DNA of 43,047 nucleotides from Candidatus Altimarinota bacterium (GCA_037969665.1 JBBKXV010000268.1:1-43047), one strand, 5' to 3'; shown: positions 228 to 9,044, numbered from the stretch's first letter. Notes: generated by a model from the sequence alone, not told the origin. Numbers and translations are program-made.

Positions 228-282
228 TTTTACCGTCAAGGATATGCGGGCGCGTTACAACGTAAATAATCGCGTTATGGGA

Positions 283-315
283 AAACAAAAAAATACCACT
301 CTTTTACAAGTGGCA
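283..315 (-). terminator. Rho-independent terminator closing leftward operon 1
   Basis: Minus strand reads GCCACTtgtaaaAGTGGT followed by ATTTTTTTGTTTTC, about 20 nt after the stop of the 334..1197 gene. Confidence 0.7.
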
Positions 316-333
316 TCTCTTTTGGGTCTGGTC

Positions 334-1197
334 TTATTCCTTCGCGGGTTCTGTCGCAATGGTCTTACTGTACTTCGGCACAAGTTTTTTCAGTATGCCT
401 TTCCTTCGTAGTATATCGAGTACAAATATCTGCACTTGCATATCAAAAAGGTTTTTCGCGTTGTGTAGGACTATGGAAAGGAATCGTGCATGTTCCTCGC
501 TATCTTTTGCTCCCTCCTTGCCCATAGCTAGTTCCATTATTTTACTGAGTTTTTCAGCAATATTCCCATTCTGTAAGTCTTCTATTTTTATGCCTCCTGT
601 TTTTTCATCGAGTTTTTTATCTATTGTTTCATGGAATTGTTTATAATGGTTCGATCCCATTATCGCTTCACTTGCGGTGCGTATAAGCGCCTGTTGTGCG
701 TTGTCGTAGGGCATAAAATCCTGTAATGCATTGACTTCTGGTTCAAATATAGCGAGTTCAAAACATGTCTGCATAATGTACTCGTGGATGTCTTCTGGTG
801 CTTTTTCTTTGAGTACGCCACTCGTAAATATTGAAGAGTTTTCAATGTAGTGCATCACCTCTTTAAGGTCTGCATATTGTCCTTTCGTATAAACTCGCTG
901 GTCTTTATACGGTAAAATATATTTTGCTACATGCTTACATGCTTTGAGTATCTCGGGTTCTAGCTTGTCCACAATTAAGCGCGTTTGGCTCTCAAGGTCT
1001 TTCAGTGAGTCTATACCTAGCTTTCTATCATGGGCATTGAGTTCGGTGCATTCCTGAAGGATGAAGGCTCGGAAAGGATATTTTTTCGGGTCTATGGTAA
1101 AAAAATTGTTTATATTACTCGTAAGGTGTAGCGCTTTTTGCGCTTCTGCCTCTTGGGCTTCTACGAGTTTTTTGAGTGATAATTCTGGTGTTTTCAT
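334..1197 (-). CDS. Hypothetical protein (287 aa), last gene of leftward operon 1
   Basis: Long ATG-initiated ORF packed tightly behind upstream genes and followed by a terminator. No motif recognised. Confidence 0.7.
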   Translation of the reverse strand: MKTPELSLKKLVEAQEAEAQKALHLTSNINNFFTIDPKKYPFRAFILQECTELNAHDRKLGIDSLKDLESQTRLIVDKLEPEILKACKHVAKYILPYKDQRVYTKGQYADLKEVMHYIENSSIFTSGVLKEKAPEDIHEYIMQTCFELAIFEPEVNALQDFMPYDNAQQALIRTASEAIMGSNHYKQFHETIDKKLDEKTGGIKIEDLQNGNIAEKLSKIMELAMGKEGAKDSEEHARFLSIVLHNAKNLFDMQVQIFVLDILRRKGILKKLVPKYSKTIATEPAKE

Positions 1198-1204
1198 AGG
1201 GTTT

Positions 1205-1285
1205 TTATAATAAAACAGTGAGTAAAATTAAGGATACGATCATAGTGATATAGGCAATTCTTTTTTTCTTAATGGTGTCCTTCAT
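1205..1285 (-). CDS. Candidate 26-aa membrane micro-protein (MKDTIKKKRIAYITMIVSLILLTVLL)
   Basis: Hand-translated ORF below the 60-aa track cutoff: basic N-terminus plus one hydrophobic helix. It fills the vWA-to-next-gene gap, with its stop 7 nt before the next ATG. Upstream is the C-rich leader TTTTACCCACCACCACGT seen before other leftward genes. Confidence 0.3.
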   Translation of the reverse strand: MKDTIKKKRIAYITMIVSLILLTVLL

Positions 1286-1303
1286 ACGTGGTGGTGGGTA
1301 AAA

Positions 1304-2350
1304 TTATCGACGTTTACTGAGGCTCTTTGAAAGGGCTTTTGATAGGTTTTTCAAGAGTGAGGCGCTTAAGTTTTTAGCATCTACGGTAAAGCCTTTTTTG
1401 TACAATTCTACGGGTAGACACGTATCTATACCTACGGCAAAAAACTGACAATTCCCTTTTCCCTCTAGTAGGTTGATAAGGTGCAAGGCGCTTTCCCGCG
1501 ATCCTGTTTTCGGTGCTTTTTTCCCATTGATATAGCAGTCCATGTGGTCTGATAAGTCGCCAAAATCCACTTCCCCGTCACCTAGGTGCAATATGATGTG
1601 GTCTGCATCTGGATTCGCTCGTACATTCATAGCGGTGTACGCTAGTATGGTACTATCGTCGTTTTCCATCATTATCTTATTCTGGTATACACGTCGATAA
1701 TCGCCTCCCTTGTACTCTTTACCCTGTCGTTTGCATAGCGCCTTTATGGTGTCACGTGCCTCGGAATCGGTTGAGTGAGTTGCTACATACATACGCTCGC
1801 GCCCGCCTTGTATCGGTTCATGGTGATAAATACAATAGTCATTACCCGCCTTGTAAATCGTGTATTTTATGCTGTTATATTCCTGTTGCACGTCGCTCAT
1901 GGTTTTCGGCATGGGTTTATTCATAATCCTTTTCAGTGCATCACCTGCATAAGGCGCGATTGGTTCACCATAAAACGTCAAGTTGATAGTCGTAAAATCA
2001 TGGAAAAGTGCATACAATTCACGTATTGCAAGCCATGTAAGGGTCTCGCGTGTCACGTACATTCCATTTTCATCGCGATATATTTCGTTTTCCATAGATC
2101 CTGACGTATCCATATTGATATGTATCATGTACTCTTTACCCCTTGCGTTGTCGGTTCTGGTGAAGAGTCTTTTGCTTGTTTTGTATTCGCTGCATCTATT
2201 TGTATCTAGTAGCCCCCGCCTGTCGAGCGAGGGTCTATAAAATAAGTTGTCTTTGAGTTGTGCAAGTACCTTTTTGCGAAGGTGGATATTTGTATGCTGG
2301 TCTATCATGGTGATTATTTCGTGAGTAGGTCGGAAAGTTGTTTTTTGCAC
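1304..2350 (-). CDS. von Willebrand factor A (vWA) domain protein, CobT-like partner of the AAA+ ATPase
   Basis: MIDAS motif D-x-S-x-S in INMDTSGSM. It sits immediately downstream of the MoxR-like ATPase. The alternative ATG at 2308 would remove the 37-nt overlap. Confidence 0.75.
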   Translation of the reverse strand: MQKTTFRPTHEIITMIDQHTNIHLRKKVLAQLKDNLFYRPSLDRRGLLDTNRCSEYKTSKRLFTRTDNARGKEYMIHINMDTSGSMENEIYRDENGMYVTRETLTWLAIRELYALFHDFTTINLTFYGEPIAPYAGDALKRIMNKPMPKTMSDVQQEYNSIKYTIYKAGNDYCIYHHEPIQGGRERMYVATHSTDSEARDTIKALCKRQGKEYKGGDYRRVYQNKIMMENDDSTILAYTAMNVRANPDADHIILHLGDGEVDFGDLSDHMDCYINGKKAPKTGSRESALHLINLLEGKGNCQFFAVGIDTCLPVELYKKGFTVDAKNLSASLLKNLSKALSKSLSKRR

Positions 2351-3675
2351 TTCTCAAGTTCCTCTAGGTATGTACGTATTTTATCAATATCCTGTTTGAG
2401 ACTTTCAAGGTGTGAGGTTGTCACTTTTTCAATCTCTTTAGGTATGGACTTCGTGACGGTTGCCCCTATGTCCTTGGTTGCCTGTACATGGTTTTTTGCG
2501 GTCTCGTATAAAGCATGGGTCTCAAATTGTCTGCTATACGATTCAAAACTTGTCGCTACTTCTCGGATACAGTTCAAGACAAGTTCTCGCTCCTCTTCAT
2601 CGAGTATCTTTTGCGTAAATCCCGCGCGTACGCTTTCGGTGAGGGGTAAGTCTGCATTGACTAGCGCGCTGATATGGTCGATATCTCGTAGGCTCGGGCA
2701 ATACGTTATAGACCCGTCTATAAACTTCGGTAAGGTCTTTTTAATGATTTCAAAAAGATACGGTAGGTATATCTCTGCTTTTGGGTATCTCTCGGAAAAA
2801 CTTTGCGCTATATGTTCCATGTCGGGCATCCCTACGTCTAAGGCGCAAAATCGTGAAAGTGTCGCGGTGTTATAGTCCTTCAATCCCGCGTAGCTCGGGG
2901 GGTTGGATGTCGCAAAAAGCATAAACTCCTTATGTGGATGTATGGTTTCTACTATCCCGCTTTCCGTTGCTTTTTCGGTAAGAGTAAGAGATCCAAAACG
3001 GTGATTATTTACTTCAATGACCGCCTGTATAGTGAGTAATACGTCTGCATGGGCTGCGTTTATTTCATCCAGTAGTATCCAGTGCCCCTCTCTCATGGCA
3101 ATCGTGAGTAGACCGTCTTGCCAAACGGTTGTACCGTCTATAAGCACGTAGCGCCCTACTAAGTCTTCTCGCCCTGTTTGCCCATTGAGGTTGATACGAA
3201 AAAGGGTCTTCTTATTCCTCTTCGCAACCTCTCGGATAAGAGTCGTTTTTCCTGTTCCTGTATGTCCATAGATTAAAGCGGGTCGCGTTGCATTTTTACA
3301 TGCCTCTAAGAAGTTAATCTGGTCTTGTGGTATCTGGATGTTTTCCATTGCTTCGGGTTCCTCCTCTTGAGTCTGGTCTTGCTTGTCCTCCTCTTGGTCT
3401 TCTGGTGCATCGCCTTTTTTGCCCTTCTCGCTGTCTTTACCTGTAGTTTCCTCTTGCTTGTCTGCCTCTTGTGGGTCGGTTTTCTTTTTCTCTTGTTCAT
3501 CCTTGGTGGATTCCTTTTTCTTTTTGTCTGTCTCTTGGTCGTTCTTATTTGGCGCGCCTTCGTAGTCGGTTGTGGTGGTGGTGCCCTCCTCGGTCGTAGC
3601 CATTGAGGCAAGCGCGTTATTTTTTGCGGTGGTCTTTGATACTTCTAAGGTCTCGGAAAGTGTTGTAGCTTTCAT
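2314..3675 (-). CDS. AAA+ ATPase of the MoxR/CobS (AAA_5-like) type with a ~120-aa charged low-complexity N-terminal extension
   Basis: Walker A YGHTGTGKTT and Walker B WILLDEINAA. The N-terminus is rich in K/E/D/T/Q. Paired with a vWA gene. Confidence 0.85.
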   Translation of the reverse strand: MKATTLSETLEVSKTTAKNNALASMATTEEGTTTTTDYEGAPNKNDQETDKKKKESTKDEQEKKKTDPQEADKQEETTGKDSEKGKKGDAPEDQEEDKQDQTQEEEPEAMENIQIPQDQINFLEACKNATRPALIYGHTGTGKTTLIREVAKRNKKTLFRINLNGQTGREDLVGRYVLIDGTTVWQDGLLTIAMREGHWILLDEINAAHADVLLTIQAVIEVNNHRFGSLTLTEKATESGIVETIHPHKEFMLFATSNPPSYAGLKDYNTATLSRFCALDVGMPDMEHIAQSFSERYPKAEIYLPYLFEIIKKTLPKFIDGSITYCPSLRDIDHISALVNADLPLTESVRAGFTQKILDEEERELVLNCIREVATSFESYSRQFETHALYETAKNHVQATKDIGATVTKSIPKEIEKVTTSHLESLKQDIDKIRTYLEELEKCKKQLSDLLTK

Positions 3676-3703
3676 AATAAAAATGGTGTAGGGTAAAAAA
3701 TAT

Positions 3704-4429
3704 TTATAATGATAATTCTGGCATCTGTATAAGGTTCATCTGCGCTTTTGCCTCTTGGATATGGTCAAGAATTATCGCGATCCTTTCATCTAGTAACGCG
3801 GTGCTGTCAATCGTGTATGTAGGTTTTTTATCCATGTGTGCCTTTTGTAGGTACACTTGCGTTTCGTTGAGTACATTCGCAATCCAACGTGTATTAGCAA
3901 AAAGGTCGTAGGACTCTTTCATAGCTTTATGGGCAAGCTCGGACTCCTTGAGGTTTACAAACTTTATGTCCATACTTTTTTCCCATGGGATAGGCGCAAG
4001 TAGTACATAGCTCTCGTGGGTTCGTGTGGTACGTTGTAAAAAATAGCGCATAGTGTTGTACTGGATAACTTGCCCATGGTATAGGTCTCTCGTGTTCCTG
4101 TTTATTGGGCGTGATATATTGAATGTCTTATATCCACTTTCCATGTCGGGGGCTTCATGTTGCGTCATATAGTGCGTTCCTATATGGGTACCGTAGGTGA
4201 AAAAGTTGATAATAGTTGTGTGTAATTTCATGCCCTCGTGGCGGGGTAGCGCGGTGATTTCAGCCTGTAAGGGGCTATTTTTTGAGGTTCGCAAGTATAC
4301 GGTGCGCCTGTAATATGTGGGCTCTGGATCTGGTGCATCCCATACGGAAAACAAGAAGTGTTCAAAATCCGTGCGGGTCTTGCATACTTTACTTCGTATC
4401 TGGTGCGGTTTTTTTTGTACTCTTGGCAT
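3704..4429 (-). CDS. Hypothetical protein (241 aa), directly upstream of the ATPase-vWA pair
   Basis: Long ATG ORF in operon context. No motif recognised. Confidence 0.65.
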   Translation of the reverse strand: MPRVQKKPHQIRSKVCKTRTDFEHFLFSVWDAPDPEPTYYRRTVYLRTSKNSPLQAEITALPRHEGMKLHTTIINFFTYGTHIGTHYMTQHEAPDMESGYKTFNISRPINRNTRDLYHGQVIQYNTMRYFLQRTTRTHESYVLLAPIPWEKSMDIKFVNLKESELAHKAMKESYDLFANTRWIANVLNETQVYLQKAHMDKKPTYTIDSTALLDERIAIILDHIQEAKAQMNLIQMPELSL

Positions 4430-5951: not shown

Positions 5952-6097
5952 AGCAGGGAAAGGAAAAAAGTAGGGGTTGTTTAATTGATTATTGTAAGGA
6001 CTAGCCAAGCAATGAAGAGTAGCTTCAGGGGCATAGGGACAAGAATACAAGCCACTAGAAGAAGGAAAAGAAAAGGCATAAGAAAGGGGTTCAAGTA

Positions 6098-6280
6098 TTA
6101 AAGATAGTGTCCATTTTGGGATAGTCGTATTTGCATGGCAAAAGCTATACATACAATGACTAAACTCGTTAGCGGGTACTCGTGCAATCGTATTCCATAG
6201 CCATAAACAAACAGGGGCAAGGATATATAGACAACGTGCAGGGCATCTTTCAAATAGGATATAAAGGGTTCTAGGTTCAT
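6098..6280 (-). CDS. Candidate small two-helix membrane protein (60 aa)
   Basis: Two hydrophobic stretches. The ATG is preceded by the C-rich CTCTTGACCCC. Short and unsupported otherwise. Confidence 0.35.
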   Translation of the reverse strand: MNLEPFISYLKDALHVVYISLPLFVYGYGIRLHEYPLTSLVIVCIAFAMQIRLSQNGHYL

Positions 6281-6389
6281 GGGGTCAAGAGTTAGCTATA
6301 GATAGAGTATCGAAGGTGCGCGCGGGCGCGTGACTCGATCAGGGCGGAATAGTAGTAATCATAAGCATAAGGATTAAGCGATTAAGCAA

Positions 6390-6770
6390 TTAAGCTATAG
6401 AATCTGGATTGAGTAGCGTACATAATAGGAAAGACCCAAAACGGATTAACGTTGTATAAAACAATATGTCAGCCATAAACAAAGCACCACCTACGAAGCC
6501 CGCGCCTGCTACAGGAGCAGCTACAAGCAAGGCAATTGAGATAAGCATTGCAAGTAGTACAAGTGGTACAAGTACACTTGTAACAATACAAGCGACTGTA
6601 TTTGTAATGCTTGCAGTTGCTAGCGTAATAGCGTGGACATCCTTTTTAATTGCTTGGAATTGGTCGCTCTCAAGTACATTAACTACAGTCTCTTGGACTG
6701 TCTCAAAAGCGCCAGTCACTGTATCAAGTGCGCTAGTAAATACGTTGGAAACGTTTGCAAATGCTGTCAT
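6390..6770 (-). CDS. Membrane protein (126 aa), first gene of leftward operon 1
   Basis: The C-terminal half has 2-3 hydrophobic helices (VLVPLVLLAMLISIALLVAAPVAGAGFVGGALF...). The internal ATG at 6770 is preceded by TATATTACCCCTCTCACC. Confidence 0.55.
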   Translation of the reverse strand: MTAFANVSNVFTSALDTVTGAFETVQETVVNVLESDQFQAIKKDVHAITLATASITNTVACIVTSVLVPLVLLAMLISIALLVAAPVAGAGFVGGALFMADILFYTTLIRFGSFLLCTLLNPDSIA

Positions 6771-6943
6771 GGTGAGAGGGGTAATATAGTAGGTTGTTCT
6801 CTCTCTTGGAACATCTTTATTATACCGAAACTGTAGCACAATACAAGTATAATACTATCATTAAGGTTGCAATATTAAAGGTTTATTGCTTCAGTATGTA
6901 GTATAAGCCCTGAGCCCTATAATATATAATATTACATGCATCC
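6771..6943. promoter_or_regulatory. Divergent control region between leftward operon 1 and the rightward late operon
   Basis: AT-rich. TATAAT hexamers on the plus strand at 6848, 6918 and 6925. On the minus strand, TATAAT (6824..6819) has TTGTAT 16 nt upstream (6846..6841). Confidence 0.4.
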
Positions 6944-7210
6944 ATGGAAATCATAAATAGTGCGTGGGAGGATGAAGTACGAAGGGAATTAGAAAAGATT
7001 ATGACTCCCAAGGATATAGCGAAGTTGCATAAGAAGCTACTGACGTCAAGTAGTGACAAGGTAGCACTAGGGGCATTGAAAGAGCTATACGGGGTCGGGG
7101 GTGTTGGGAAGGCATCATCAAACAGTGTGCCCCATATTATCCTTAACATTGCACCACAAGCGGGGATCCCTTCGATCGTCGAGGATATACGGATAGGGAA
7201 CGGGGGGTAA
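6944..7210 (+). CDS. Small protein (88 aa); candidate small terminase or DNA-binding subunit by position only
   Basis: ATG start and plausible helical, charged composition, immediately upstream of the large terminase. The overlapping minus ORF 6883..7275 starts at GTG and is P/S/I/F-rich. Confidence 0.4.
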   Translation: MEIINSAWEDEVRRELEKIMTPKDIAKLHKKLLTSSSDKVALGALKELYGVGGVGKASSNSVPHIILNIAPQAGIPSIVEDIRIGNGG

Positions 7211-7310
7211 TGTTTGGGGGGGACTGGTGGGGTGTCCCGACGTATTGGAGATAAAAGAAATAAGATACCCCCCACCCATAATTTTACATCAAAAAACCTA
7301 AGCTACACCT

Positions 7311-9044
7311 ATGGTATCACTAGATGAAGAGTTGTTTAACGATGAGGATCACCACACGAATGGAGAGTTACGGAACTACCCCGTCCATTACTATGAGATG
7401 AGTGATGAGGAGTTGTTCATGATGGGTTTGTACCGTGAAGGGAAGCGAGGTAACAAGATTGTGCCTATGGGATCTCGTAAGAGGAGTGAGTTGGAGGAGA
7501 CCTTGGATGTGGATGAGGAGTTTTTAGTGGAGAAACCTGTGGCGCCTAAGGTGAAGAAGCCGAAGAAGGTACCTGGTGTTGTTGATGTGGATAGTGAGGA
7601 GGCATTGAGTGAGGAGTTAGCGCGTCATGAGGGGTTGAAGAAGGAGACTATTAACTTCTTAGAGTTGTCGGGTTTCCAGGCCAAGCAGATAGAGGCCCAT
7701 CTTCAAGCGATGCGGTATAAGTATGTGTTGTATGGAGGTGCAGCTGGTGGTGGTAAGAGTTATTTCTTGCGATGGCAGGCGGTATTTATGTGTATGTACT
7801 ACTTCCAGGTGTATGGTGCTAAGGGAGTACGTGTGGGATTATTTTGTGAGGATTATCCAGCCTTGAAGGAACGCCAGATCAGTAAGGTGGAGTTTGAGTT
7901 CCCTAGTTGGTTAGGGACGTTGAATAGGAGTGAGAGTGAGTTCAGGCTTCATGCTGCCTTTGGTGGTGGAGTGATAGCGTTTAGGAATTTGGATGATCCG
8001 AGTAAGTACTTGAGTAGTGAGTTTGCGAGTATTTTTATTGATGAGTTGACGAAGGATAAGGAGGAGGTGTTTCACTTCTTGGTATTGCTCCGTTTACGTT
8101 GGCCAGGCATCCCCAAGCATGATACGAAGTTTATAGCGGGGAGTAATCCAGGTGGCCCAGGCCATGGATGGGTGAAGAAGTTATGGATTGATCGGAATTT
8201 TGAGGGCATGGATAAGGTGGATCCCAGAGAGTTTTGTTATATCCAAGCCTTGTACTCGGATAATAAGTTTATTGACCCTGGGTATGGTGATCAGTTGAGT
8301 ATGCTGCCAGATGATCTTGCGAAGGCGTACCGTGATGGAAATTGGGATGTCTTTGCTGGTCAATACTTCACGGAGTTTAATCGGGATGTGCATGTGATAG
8401 ATGATTTTGAGGATGACGCCACGAAGAAGATTTTCAATGAGTTACCTGTGTTTATAGGGCTGGATTACGGGTATACTGCGCCAAGTGCGGTGGTTTTTGG
8501 GAGATTTTGGGATGGTGAATGGTATATTTTTGATGAGATCTACGTCAAAACCCATACCTATGAGGAGTTACGGGATGCGATACTCAATAAGATCCATGAC
8601 CAGGATATGAAGGTGGAAGCGGTGTTTGCGGATCCTGCTATATGGGCGAAGAAGGATAGTCCTACCTCTGGTGCGGATAAGATGCGGCCCTTACCGATGT
8701 TGAAGGCACCGAATGATCGTATTATTGGGTGGACAGTGGTGCGCCAGTTCTTTAAAACGAATGCTATCAAGATCAACCGCCGTTGTGTACACTTAGTGAG
8801 TACTATTCCTAACCAAGTACACTCAGAGCGCCGTATAGATGATTTAGATACGAATGGTGAGGATCATGCGGTGGATGCGTTACGGTATTTACTCCTCTCG
8901 TATAAGAACCGTGTCCATCAAGACAGTCCCTTGACATACCTAGGTGGTTCTGTGGATAGTGAGAGTGATTTAGAATCGTTATTTGATACCGACGACGATG
9001 AGTTTACAACGTTAGACGGAATGGGATTCTTCTATACAACATAA
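7311..9044 (+). CDS. terL: Terminase large subunit
   Basis: Walker A YGGAAGGGKSY and Walker B-like IFIDELT. 577 aa, followed by the portal gene. Confidence 0.93.
   Translation: MVSLDEELFNDEDHHTNGELRNYPVHYYEMSDEELFMMGLYREGKRGNKIVPMGSRKRSELEETLDVDEEFLVEKPVAPKVKKPKKVPGVVDVDSEEALSEELARHEGLKKETINFLELSGFQAKQIEAHLQAMRYKYVLYGGAAGGGKSYFLRWQAVFMCMYYFQVYGAKGVRVGLFCEDYPALKERQISKVEFEFPSWLGTLNRSESEFRLHAAFGGGVIAFRNLDDPSKYLSSEFASIFIDELTKDKEEVFHFLVLLRLRWPGIPKHDTKFIAGSNPGGPGHGWVKKLWIDRNFEGMDKVDPREFCYIQALYSDNKFIDPGYGDQLSMLPDDLAKAYRDGNWDVFAGQYFTEFNRDVHVIDDFEDDATKKIFNELPVFIGLDYGYTAPSAVVFGRFWDGEWYIFDEIYVKTHTYEELRDAILNKIHDQDMKVEAVFADPAIWAKKDSPTSGADKMRPLPMLKAPNDRIIGWTVVRQFFKTNAIKINRRCVHLVSTIPNQVHSERRIDDLDTNGEDHAVDALRYLLLSYKNRVHQDSPLTYLGGSVDSESDLESLFDTDDDEFTTLDGMGFFYTT

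Follow-up and report, generated by a model that had tools for sequence, protein, structure and literature searches.

MoxR-class AAA+ ATPases are paired with von Willebrand factor A (vWA) adaptors in NorQ-NorD, which inserts FeB into cNOR (PDB 9qh4-9qhg; PMC13036017), in CbbQ-CbbO, a Rubisco activase (PDB 6l1q, 5c3c; PMC4660213), and in CobS-CobT, the motor of aerobic cobaltochelatase (PDB 9ujv, 9uka; bioRxiv 10.64898/2026.10.09.757910). In cryo-electron microscopy of NorQ-NorD the MoxR hexamer carries the vWA domain on its concave face (PMC13036017), and CobS-CobT follows the same plan (bioRxiv 10.64898/2026.10.09.757910). [quoted passage not shown] The NorD finger, residues 403-448, is essential for remodelling, and the NorD vWA fragment alone still binds NorQ (PMC13036017); the CobT finger, residues 362-403, passes through the CobS pore (bioRxiv 10.64898/2026.10.09.757910). 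Viral cobST-like clusters, composed of PHROG 249 and the CobT-like PHROGs 459, 1576, 5298 and 17276, occur in cyanophages, haloarchaeal viruses and others (PMC8651126, PMC11288001). The DNA analysed here, a whole contig of 43,047 bp (the window) from Candidatus Altimarinota bacterium (GCA_037969665.1, JBBKXV010000268.1:1-43047), contains a divergent instance of this already known viral module, an ATPase gene followed by the gene of a short vWA adaptor. It is otherwise ordinary and holds little surprise for specialists; what is particular to it is a zincin-less finger-vWA adaptor, an ATPase with a charged N-terminal tail and a helical C-terminal tail, and an apparent candidate phyla radiation (CPR) host without CobN.

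As in the viral cobST clusters, the gene of a CobS-like AAA_5 ATPase has that of a vWA/MIDAS protein directly after it, in the same direction. Unlike in most viral cobST pairs, the partner is short (334 aa), with no HExxH motif anywhere in its length and no N-terminal domain, and unlike in other viral pairs the ATPase has a predicted disordered, charged N-terminal tail of 110 aa and a C-terminal helical hairpin, and the lineage of the likely host lacks CobN. NorQ-NorD and CbbQ-CbbO provide the best structural matches to the ATPase core, and the arrangement of a MoxR hexamer with a vWA adaptor whose finger precedes the MIDAS strand would, by analogy from the genes, be common to them and the window pair. 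Unlike in those systems, identity is only 23-27%, the adaptor has no N-terminal domain or linker, and there is no cNOR or Rubisco context. The finger-then-vWA order is also that of CobS-CobT, with the CobT vWA domain as the nearest match of the partner family, but the window ATPase fails the CobS equivalog, the CobT N-domain is missing, and no CobN is found in the host class. Midasin/Rea1, with six AAA_5 modules and a C-terminal MIDAS domain, likewise combines AAA_5 and MIDAS with a long acidic disordered segment; however, it is one eukaryotic chain of 4700-4900 residues, whereas the window encodes two small proteins with the acidic segment on the N-terminus of the ATPase.

The ATPase and its short vWA adaptor

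The features of the pair, in coordinates of the window, are as follows.

2314-3675, minus strand: MoxR-class AAA+ ATPase (AAA_5, helix-2-insert clade), 453 aa, assigned from Pfam, PHROG and PDB matches, AlphaFold 2 model, Foldseek and motifs
3340-3675, minus strand: charged N-terminal tail of the ATPase, residues 1-112, predicted disordered (AlphaFold 2 model, composition)
2611-3339, minus strand: AAA+ core of the ATPase, residues 113-355 (AlphaFold 2 model)
2317-2610, minus strand: predicted two-helix C-terminal hairpin of the ATPase, residues 356-453 (AlphaFold 2 model)
1304-2308, minus strand: short CobT-like vWA adaptor, 334 aa from the ATG at 2308, assigned from family alignment, CobT profile match, AlphaFold 2 model and Foldseek
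2132-2308, minus strand: N-terminal "finger" segment of the adaptor, residues 1-59 (conserved in the partner alignment A1)
2096-2110, minus strand: DTSGS of the adaptor MIDAS, residues 67-71, with LGDG at residues 242-245 (motif reading)

By its sequence and predicted structure, the ATPase belongs to the MoxR-class AAA_5 proteins of the helix-2-insert clade. It matches Pfam AAA_5 at 5.6e-25 (88.4 bits, cut-off 22) and, over nearly its whole length, phrog_249, the phage CobS family labelled "porphyrin biosynthesis" (1.5e-42). Walker A (GHTGTGKT at 137), Walker B (WILLDE at 199), sensor-1 (N258), the arginine finger (R275) and sensor-2 (R330) are invariant or nearly so across 23 homologues. Single-domain scores against PDB sequences are highest for the midasin AAA module (85 bits), followed by CbbQ (70), NorQ (65) and CobS (52), and the score for the CobS equivalog TIGR01650 is 53 bits against a cut-off of 558.55. 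In the AlphaFold model built from the 23 homologues, the core (117-355) has a predicted local distance difference test score (pLDDT) above 90, including the predicted helix-2-insert and pre-sensor-1 hairpins (strands 174-179/182-187 and 230-236/242-245), residues 1-110 fall below 50 and appear disordered, and two long helices occupy 360-452. The best Foldseek match to the core is NorQ (TM-score 0.85, root mean square deviation 2.9 A), and CbbQ2 reaches 0.81. The N-terminal tail is 72% D/E/K/T/Q with a net charge of -15. Neither of the searches directed at conflict and defence families gave a specific assignment: bpMoxR (PF20030) scored 18.9 bits, below its cut-off of 27, and PADLOC returned weak generic P-loop matches only (best 1.4e-5, 22.8 bits) and no specific system model.

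The adaptor start is likely the ATG at 2308, because it begins the gene-caller product (P0001, 334 aa), is preceded by a C-rich context also found before other leftward genes, and agrees with the N-termini of homologues and with the 1-14-nt gaps between ATPase and partner in close relatives. The longest open reading frame (ORF), 348 aa at 1304-2350, starts at a GTG at 2350, and only with that start does the 37-nt overlap with the ATPase gene described in an earlier, sequence-only reading of the locus arise; the ATG at 2308 leaves a 5-nt gap after the ATPase stop.

The adaptor is so divergent that the 348-aa ORF has no direct match in Pfam (E<=0.01), including VWA and CobT_C, nor in NCBIfam or PADLOC; in PHROG it has one weak match (0.004) to phrog_459. 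That family is labelled "peptidase", the usual annotation of cyanophage CobT (PMC8651126). With tblastn against phages and a pattern scan of IMG/VR nothing was found, and a word-index search returned the adaptor itself only. Its relatives came solely from a full HMMER scan of 1.8 billion representatives, which gave 18 distant sequences mostly sharing the N-terminal 90 residues, and from synteny via ATPase homologues. Several of the distant relatives match Pfam VWA, VWA_2 or CobT_C, and distant relatives or members of the partner family match CobT PHROGs. Alignment A1, 20 sequences made up of the HMMER relatives and the genes after ATPase homologues on related contigs, has invariant MIDAS positions D67, S69 and S71 (DxSxS) and D244, together with an invariant M72, and D20, N21, R25 and G32 are invariant in the N-terminal segment. 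The A1 profile matches the solved CobT vWA domain (PDB 21vt/9uka) at 2.7e-11 and 1.2e-10, and NorD at an E-value of 0.94. The AlphaFold model of the adaptor has a pLDDT of 70.5; almost all of its 38 Foldseek matches to PDB at E<=1e-3 are vWA domains (target TM-score <=0.62), and the best matches in BFVD are phage "CobT-like" or vWA proteins of 500-860 residues. The sequence-only reading had recognized an AAA+ ATPase with clear Walker A and B motifs next to a vWA/MIDAS protein and had proposed a Foldseek comparison of the products. Both identifications hold, through AAA_5 and the full set of catalytic motifs on one side and the invariant MIDAS residues and the CobT profile on the other, and the structural comparison, run on these two products, gave a NorQ/CbbQ-like core and a vWA fold.

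Conservation of the pair and architecture of its partners

The nearest ATPase homologues, 41-43% identical, come from phage contigs that reach 40 kb at most (loci L002, L003-L005 and L006). These loci share with the window the order terminase, divergent small genes, ATPase, partner and, beyond a gap, a w266-like gene, a PDDEXK exonuclease, two small genes and DnaB; ERF, YqaJ, PDDEXK, VRR-NUC and DnaB genes are the neighbours of the pair in relatives. A pattern scan of IMG/VR with the ATPase alignment gave 80 loci, and six assembly loci brought these to 86, of which 70 are non-redundant. The A1 partner profile matches a gene in 58 of the 70; in 46 loci this gene is at +1, and in 12 it is at +2 to +4. 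Among the 12 loci without a partner match, ten end within about 1.2 kb after the ATPase, and L031 and L038 extend further. Apart from the pair no family is conserved, the next commonest being present in 6 of 21 short-form loci. On this comparison of gene neighbourhoods the pair belongs to the viral cobST-like two-gene module, which consists of the ATPase and the vWA partner with no conserved third gene. The earlier description of a CobS/CobT-like pair, known in phages without an established role, is thus borne out.

Cultured phages are poor in close relatives: their matches to the ATPases reach at most about 31% identity, and tblastn of three short partners (that of the window and two others) against INPHARED gave one weak CobT match in a Rhizobium phage and nothing else. 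Recent capture of the ATPase from the host was considered and rejected; of 400 further genomes from the host class, only 3 had so much as a distant AAA_5 match (about 4e-11).

The partners fall into long and short forms. Long partners (480-806 aa) have an HExxH motif about 60-120 residues from the N-terminus in 35 of 37 cases, whereas it occurs in none of 21 short partners (194-410 aa). In the maximum-likelihood ATPase tree the short-form label changes twice, against a mean of 17.4 after shuffling, and none of 500 shuffles was as low; the test ignores kinship, kin sharing labels, so it shows clustering and not the order of events. The window ATPase is in a clade with L002, L003 and L006 supported at 99/100. 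As judged from the sequences, the short finger-plus-vWA adaptors form a coherent branch without the HExxH N-domain. Since most long phage partners align from about A1 position 36-40 onward, at least the second half of the 59-residue N-terminal segment is common to them. A split CobT, with its N-domain on a neighbouring gene as described for HHTV-2 (PMC8651126), was rejected: a hidden Markov model of the long-form N-domain, built from 37 partners, found nothing in the whole window and one weak match elsewhere.

Several features of the related loci are recorded here in their own right. The ATPases of L003-L006, L024, L035 and L023 have acidic C-termini ending in (I/V/F)PF, like the C-terminal tip (DDDIPF) of single-stranded DNA-binding protein (SSB), and in these contigs such tails also occur on other proteins of the replication arm, putative SSB-like ones among them (fam43 in L013-L016, fam54 in L002 and L006). 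The window ATPase ends in LSDLLTK, without an SSB-like tail, and w143 ends in NPEDLIA. These tails hint at a link of the homologous ATPases to the replication and recombination machinery. Four phage contigs of 46-48 kb (L007, L008, L011 and L012; ATPase at about 6001-7491; protein P0027) read TGA as a sense codon. There TGA probably encodes glycine (code 25), pointing to hosts of the Gracilibacteria/Absconditabacteria type, because it stands where Walker A (GETGTGKT) and WQDG have conserved glycines. The large terminase of L003 (1667-4258) is 863 aa long and has a weak Pfam match to Vint (intein-type); with orthologues of 565 aa in L002 and 577 aa in the window, an inserted intein is suggested. 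In two short-form relatives (L010 8451-12218, L007 4135-4992) a Band_7/SPFH gene lies near the pair, and L010 also has GroES and GroEL homologues a few genes downstream.

Flanking genes, phage genome and host

Around the pair, the window contains the following.

3704-4429, minus strand: 241-aa ORFan directly upstream of the ATPase, 28-nt gap (no family match)
1205-1285, minus strand: putative micro-ORF of 26 aa (MKDTIKKKRIAYITMIVSLILLTVLL), basic at its N-end and hydrophobic at its C-end (sequence reading)
334-1197, minus strand: 287-aa helical ORFan downstream of the pair (protein search, no match but itself)
282-322, minus strand: intrinsic-terminator-like hairpin closing the leftward operon (RNA fold)
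3703-3758, no strand assigned: left copy of short imperfect direct repeats, at the 3' end of the 241-aa gene (repeat search, local-alignment test)
1139-1203, no strand assigned: right copy of the repeats, at the 5' end of the 287-aa gene (repeat search, local-alignment test)

The sequence-only reading had joined five co-directional ORFs into a cassette closed by a terminator. All five are on the minus strand, and the terminator finds support in a 15-bp hairpin with an A-tract, a GC core and a U-tract, which begins 12 nt past the stop of the 287-aa gene and folds with a free energy of -17.4 kcal/mol (z -4.1; 1 of 200 shuffles as stable). The cassette itself does not survive, as its flanking genes are not co-conserved with the pair: the 241-aa, 287-aa and 26-aa genes have no homologue in the 86 related loci and are singletons among 1674 neighbouring ORFs. 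In the proposed survey of gene neighbourhoods across phages, therefore, the ATPase-vWA pair was kept and the flanks were not. The 241-aa protein has no match in Pfam, PHROG, NCBIfam or PADLOC and no credible match in 401 host-class genomes; the 287-aa protein likewise has none in PADLOC and finds only itself among 5.8 billion clustered proteins; neither has a tblastn match in cultured phages. Both were also compared with the unrelated genes at equivalent positions in the nearest relatives, with nothing from blastp or phmmer and hhalign probabilities of at most 0.1%, the value obtained for the 287-aa protein against the positionally equivalent 244-aa family. The micro-ORF has a C-rich start box and no family match, and the relatives, in which partner and next gene are 2-5 nt apart, leave no room for it; it is an unproven, putative gene and is not conserved. 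As far as sequence comparison reaches, the 241-aa and 287-aa ORFans are not part of the conserved module, and the flanks were rejected as partners of the pair after these sequence, profile and neighbourhood searches.

Direct repeats of two families (D1, D2) bracket the block of ATPase, adaptor and micro-ORF, with a further match between 3680-3702 and about 1089-1115. The repeat CCAAGAGGCA(A/G)AAGCGCA agrees at 17 of 18 positions between the copies, and a 34-nt repeat, whose core is CCAGAATTATCA, codes for PELSL both in the 241-aa protein, at its C-end, and in the 287-aa protein, at its N-end; each copy encodes PELSL and QEA(K/E)AQ, the order being swapped between the two. None of 2945 random window pairs reached their summed local-alignment score. 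The repeats may be a recombination scar of the insertion or exchange of a module, or in part a recurrent start-codon box. At its upstream end (4389-4429) the 241-aa ORF overlaps the 3' end of an XRE-type helix-turn-helix (HTH) gene by 41 nt if its start is the ATG at 4429; the start codons of both are uncertain.

The window is contig C268 of a 1.15-Mb, 309-contig, 82%-complete metagenome-assembled genome (MAG). It is a phage genome, whole or nearly so, because it encodes a large terminase, a portal-like protein, a capsid protein, a DnaB-type primase-helicase and a PDDEXK exonuclease, in line with the phage origin proposed from sequence alone. The rightward structural operon occupies 7311-33751. 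The pair lies outside it, in the leftward early/replication arm, which runs on the minus strand from 7275 down through small genes and an HTH regulator to the 241-aa, 453-aa, 348-aa, 26-aa and 287-aa ORFs; should the contig be circular, the hairpin would be followed by AT-rich non-coding sequence and, in the same direction, by recombination and replication genes. The two contig ends (1-120 and 42927-43047) have 20 identical bases (TATGTATATTTATGTATATT) in common, which sit in AT-rich sequence with palindromes and phased ATTTATGTA-like repeats. A genome that is circular or terminally redundant would fit this, as would a possible origin, the repetitive nature of the overlap making it weak evidence of closure. 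Rfam and tRNA scans of the whole window gave no match, and a scan for sigma-70 and terminator consensus sequences gave counts no higher than expected from shuffles.

The phage contig is the largest of its bin, at 43 kb against 18 kb for the second largest. It is linked to the MAG by binning, with a G+C content of 42.7% against 41.9% and a tetranucleotide correlation of 0.90, and both avoid Shine-Dalgarno motifs, which precede 4.3% of the phage starts and 6.7% of the 687 host starts, compared with 15% for background sequence. Genomes of the host class measure 0.7-1.9 Mb, and the ribosomal protein uL30 was found in none of the 31 searched, the control search succeeding in 13 of 14. Small genomes without uL30 are typical of CPR/Patescibacteria. 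On these two features the host lineage is apparently CPR-like.

A probable NorQ/NorD-like remodeller and its alternatives

What, then, might the pair do? The explanation that we consider probable, though well short of assured, is a two-gene NorQ/NorD-like protein remodeller, a MoxR ATPase with a minimal vWA adaptor, encoded in the leftward early arm of the phage. By analogy with the solved systems, the ATPase would form a hexamer and the adaptor's N-terminal segment of about 59 residues, which falls in the place of the finger because position 60 of the A1 profile aligns with CobT residue 404, would insert into the pore of the ring against the helix-2 inserts. The MIDAS face would grip an acidic residue of the target protein, and ATP turnover would twist or pull the adaptor, so that the target is remodelled. 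That target would not be a CobN-type chelatase and would most likely be a protein complex of the host or the phage, engaged early in infection. More speculatively, the acidic disordered N-terminal tail of the ATPase and its C-terminal hairpin may replace the docking roles of the missing adaptor N-domain. Several points weigh against this explanation. The mechanism is carried over from NorQD and CobST, with which identity is about 25%, the model of the finger segment has low confidence (pLDDT 48-76), and the host is assigned from binning, similar G+C content and tetranucleotides and the shared scarcity of Shine-Dalgarno motifs, with no CRISPR spacer match of the phage to the host and a MAG that is 82% complete.

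A bolder version of the same explanation, to which we would attach only a small chance, makes the pair a minimal, self-sufficient remodeller, composed of the finger-vWA adaptor and an ATPase with a disordered N-tail and a coiled-coil C-tail, for the use of phages of ultra-small (CPR) bacteria, including hosts in which TGA is read as glycine. It would disarm or take over a host complex, or service replication and recombination, as the SSB-like IPF tails of homologous ATPases hint, and it may move as a two-gene cassette that leaves repeats at its borders. A similarly modest chance attaches to the pair alone, without its flanks, as an anti-defence or host-takeover remodeller that dismantles a host complex early in infection. 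The position of the pair in an early-arm operon downstream of HTH regulators would suit such a role, as would the conservation of just these two genes in phages that differ widely, a pattern suited to a universal or host-side target, and a precedent exists in the MoxR ATPase of phage Bas54, bas54_0063, which is required to overcome DS-28 (bioRxiv 10.1101/2025.11.20.689424). No defence system, however, was identified in the host, and host takeover is a special case of the NorQ/NorD-like remodeller with a specified class of target and not an alternative mechanism.

A chaperone of virion assembly is unlikely, in our estimate. The MoxR (p618) and vWA (p892) proteins of Acidianus two-tailed virus are implicated in tail development, and a virion-assembly role has been proposed for the MoxR/peptidase-vWA pair of jumbo phages (both cited from PMC7824862). 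Such a role sits badly with the window pair, which lies in the leftward arm outside the structural operon, and the pairs of its relatives adjoin recombination, nuclease and DnaB genes (ERF, YqaJ, PDDEXK, VRR-NUC).

The five-gene conflict or counter-defence cassette, in which the 241-, 26- and 287-aa products would be effectors, partners or substrates of the core, is decidedly unlikely. Tight packing (gaps of 5-28 nt), common direction and a single closing terminator speak for it, as does the Bas54 precedent. The flanking genes, however, are ORFans without a counterpart in any related locus, and the nearest relatives hold unrelated genes at the same positions, so that the suggestion that these genes encode partners or substrates of the pair falls away. 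Ternary NTP-dependent conflict systems built on MoxR and vWA proteins include, as a third gene, one for a beta-propeller or an effector (Kaur et al. 2020, PMC7159879); unlike them, the window pair has no bpMoxR-type score and no conserved third gene, PADLOC found nothing specific, and the earlier connection to these systems is not upheld. The Vequintavirus rV5, searched as the related reference of Bas54, has no match to the window ATPase family or to Pfam AAA_3, which leaves this alternative without a tie to Bas54, and no link to the anti-DS-28 ATPase was made.

Least probable of all, indeed very unlikely, is that the genes are auxiliary metabolic genes whose CobS/CobT hijacks host CobN to boost cobalamin synthesis, as proposed for viral cobST clusters (PMC8651126) and as the customary "porphyrin biosynthesis" label of phrog_249 and the closeness of the partner profile to solved CobT would have it, because chelation needs CobN, and PF02514 (CobN/Mg-chelatase H), which the search detected in 5 known carriers, is absent from the MAG and exceeded its cut-off in none of 401 sampled class genomes; the ATPase, moreover, is far below the CobS cut-off with a core nearer to NorQ, CbbQ and midasin, and the N-domain with which CobT docks on CobS is missing from the adaptor.

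Phage genes annotated as "cobS" and "cobT" are among the commonest "metabolic" genes of viral genomes. The absence of CobN from the likely host lineage argues that the pair of the window acts on something other than a corrin ring. No third gene travels with the pair, and the target should therefore be sought among host proteins or universal phage proteins and not among its neighbours. The branch of finger-plus-vWA adaptors to which the window protein belongs offers the smallest natural construct for the study of vWA adaptors driven by MoxR rings.

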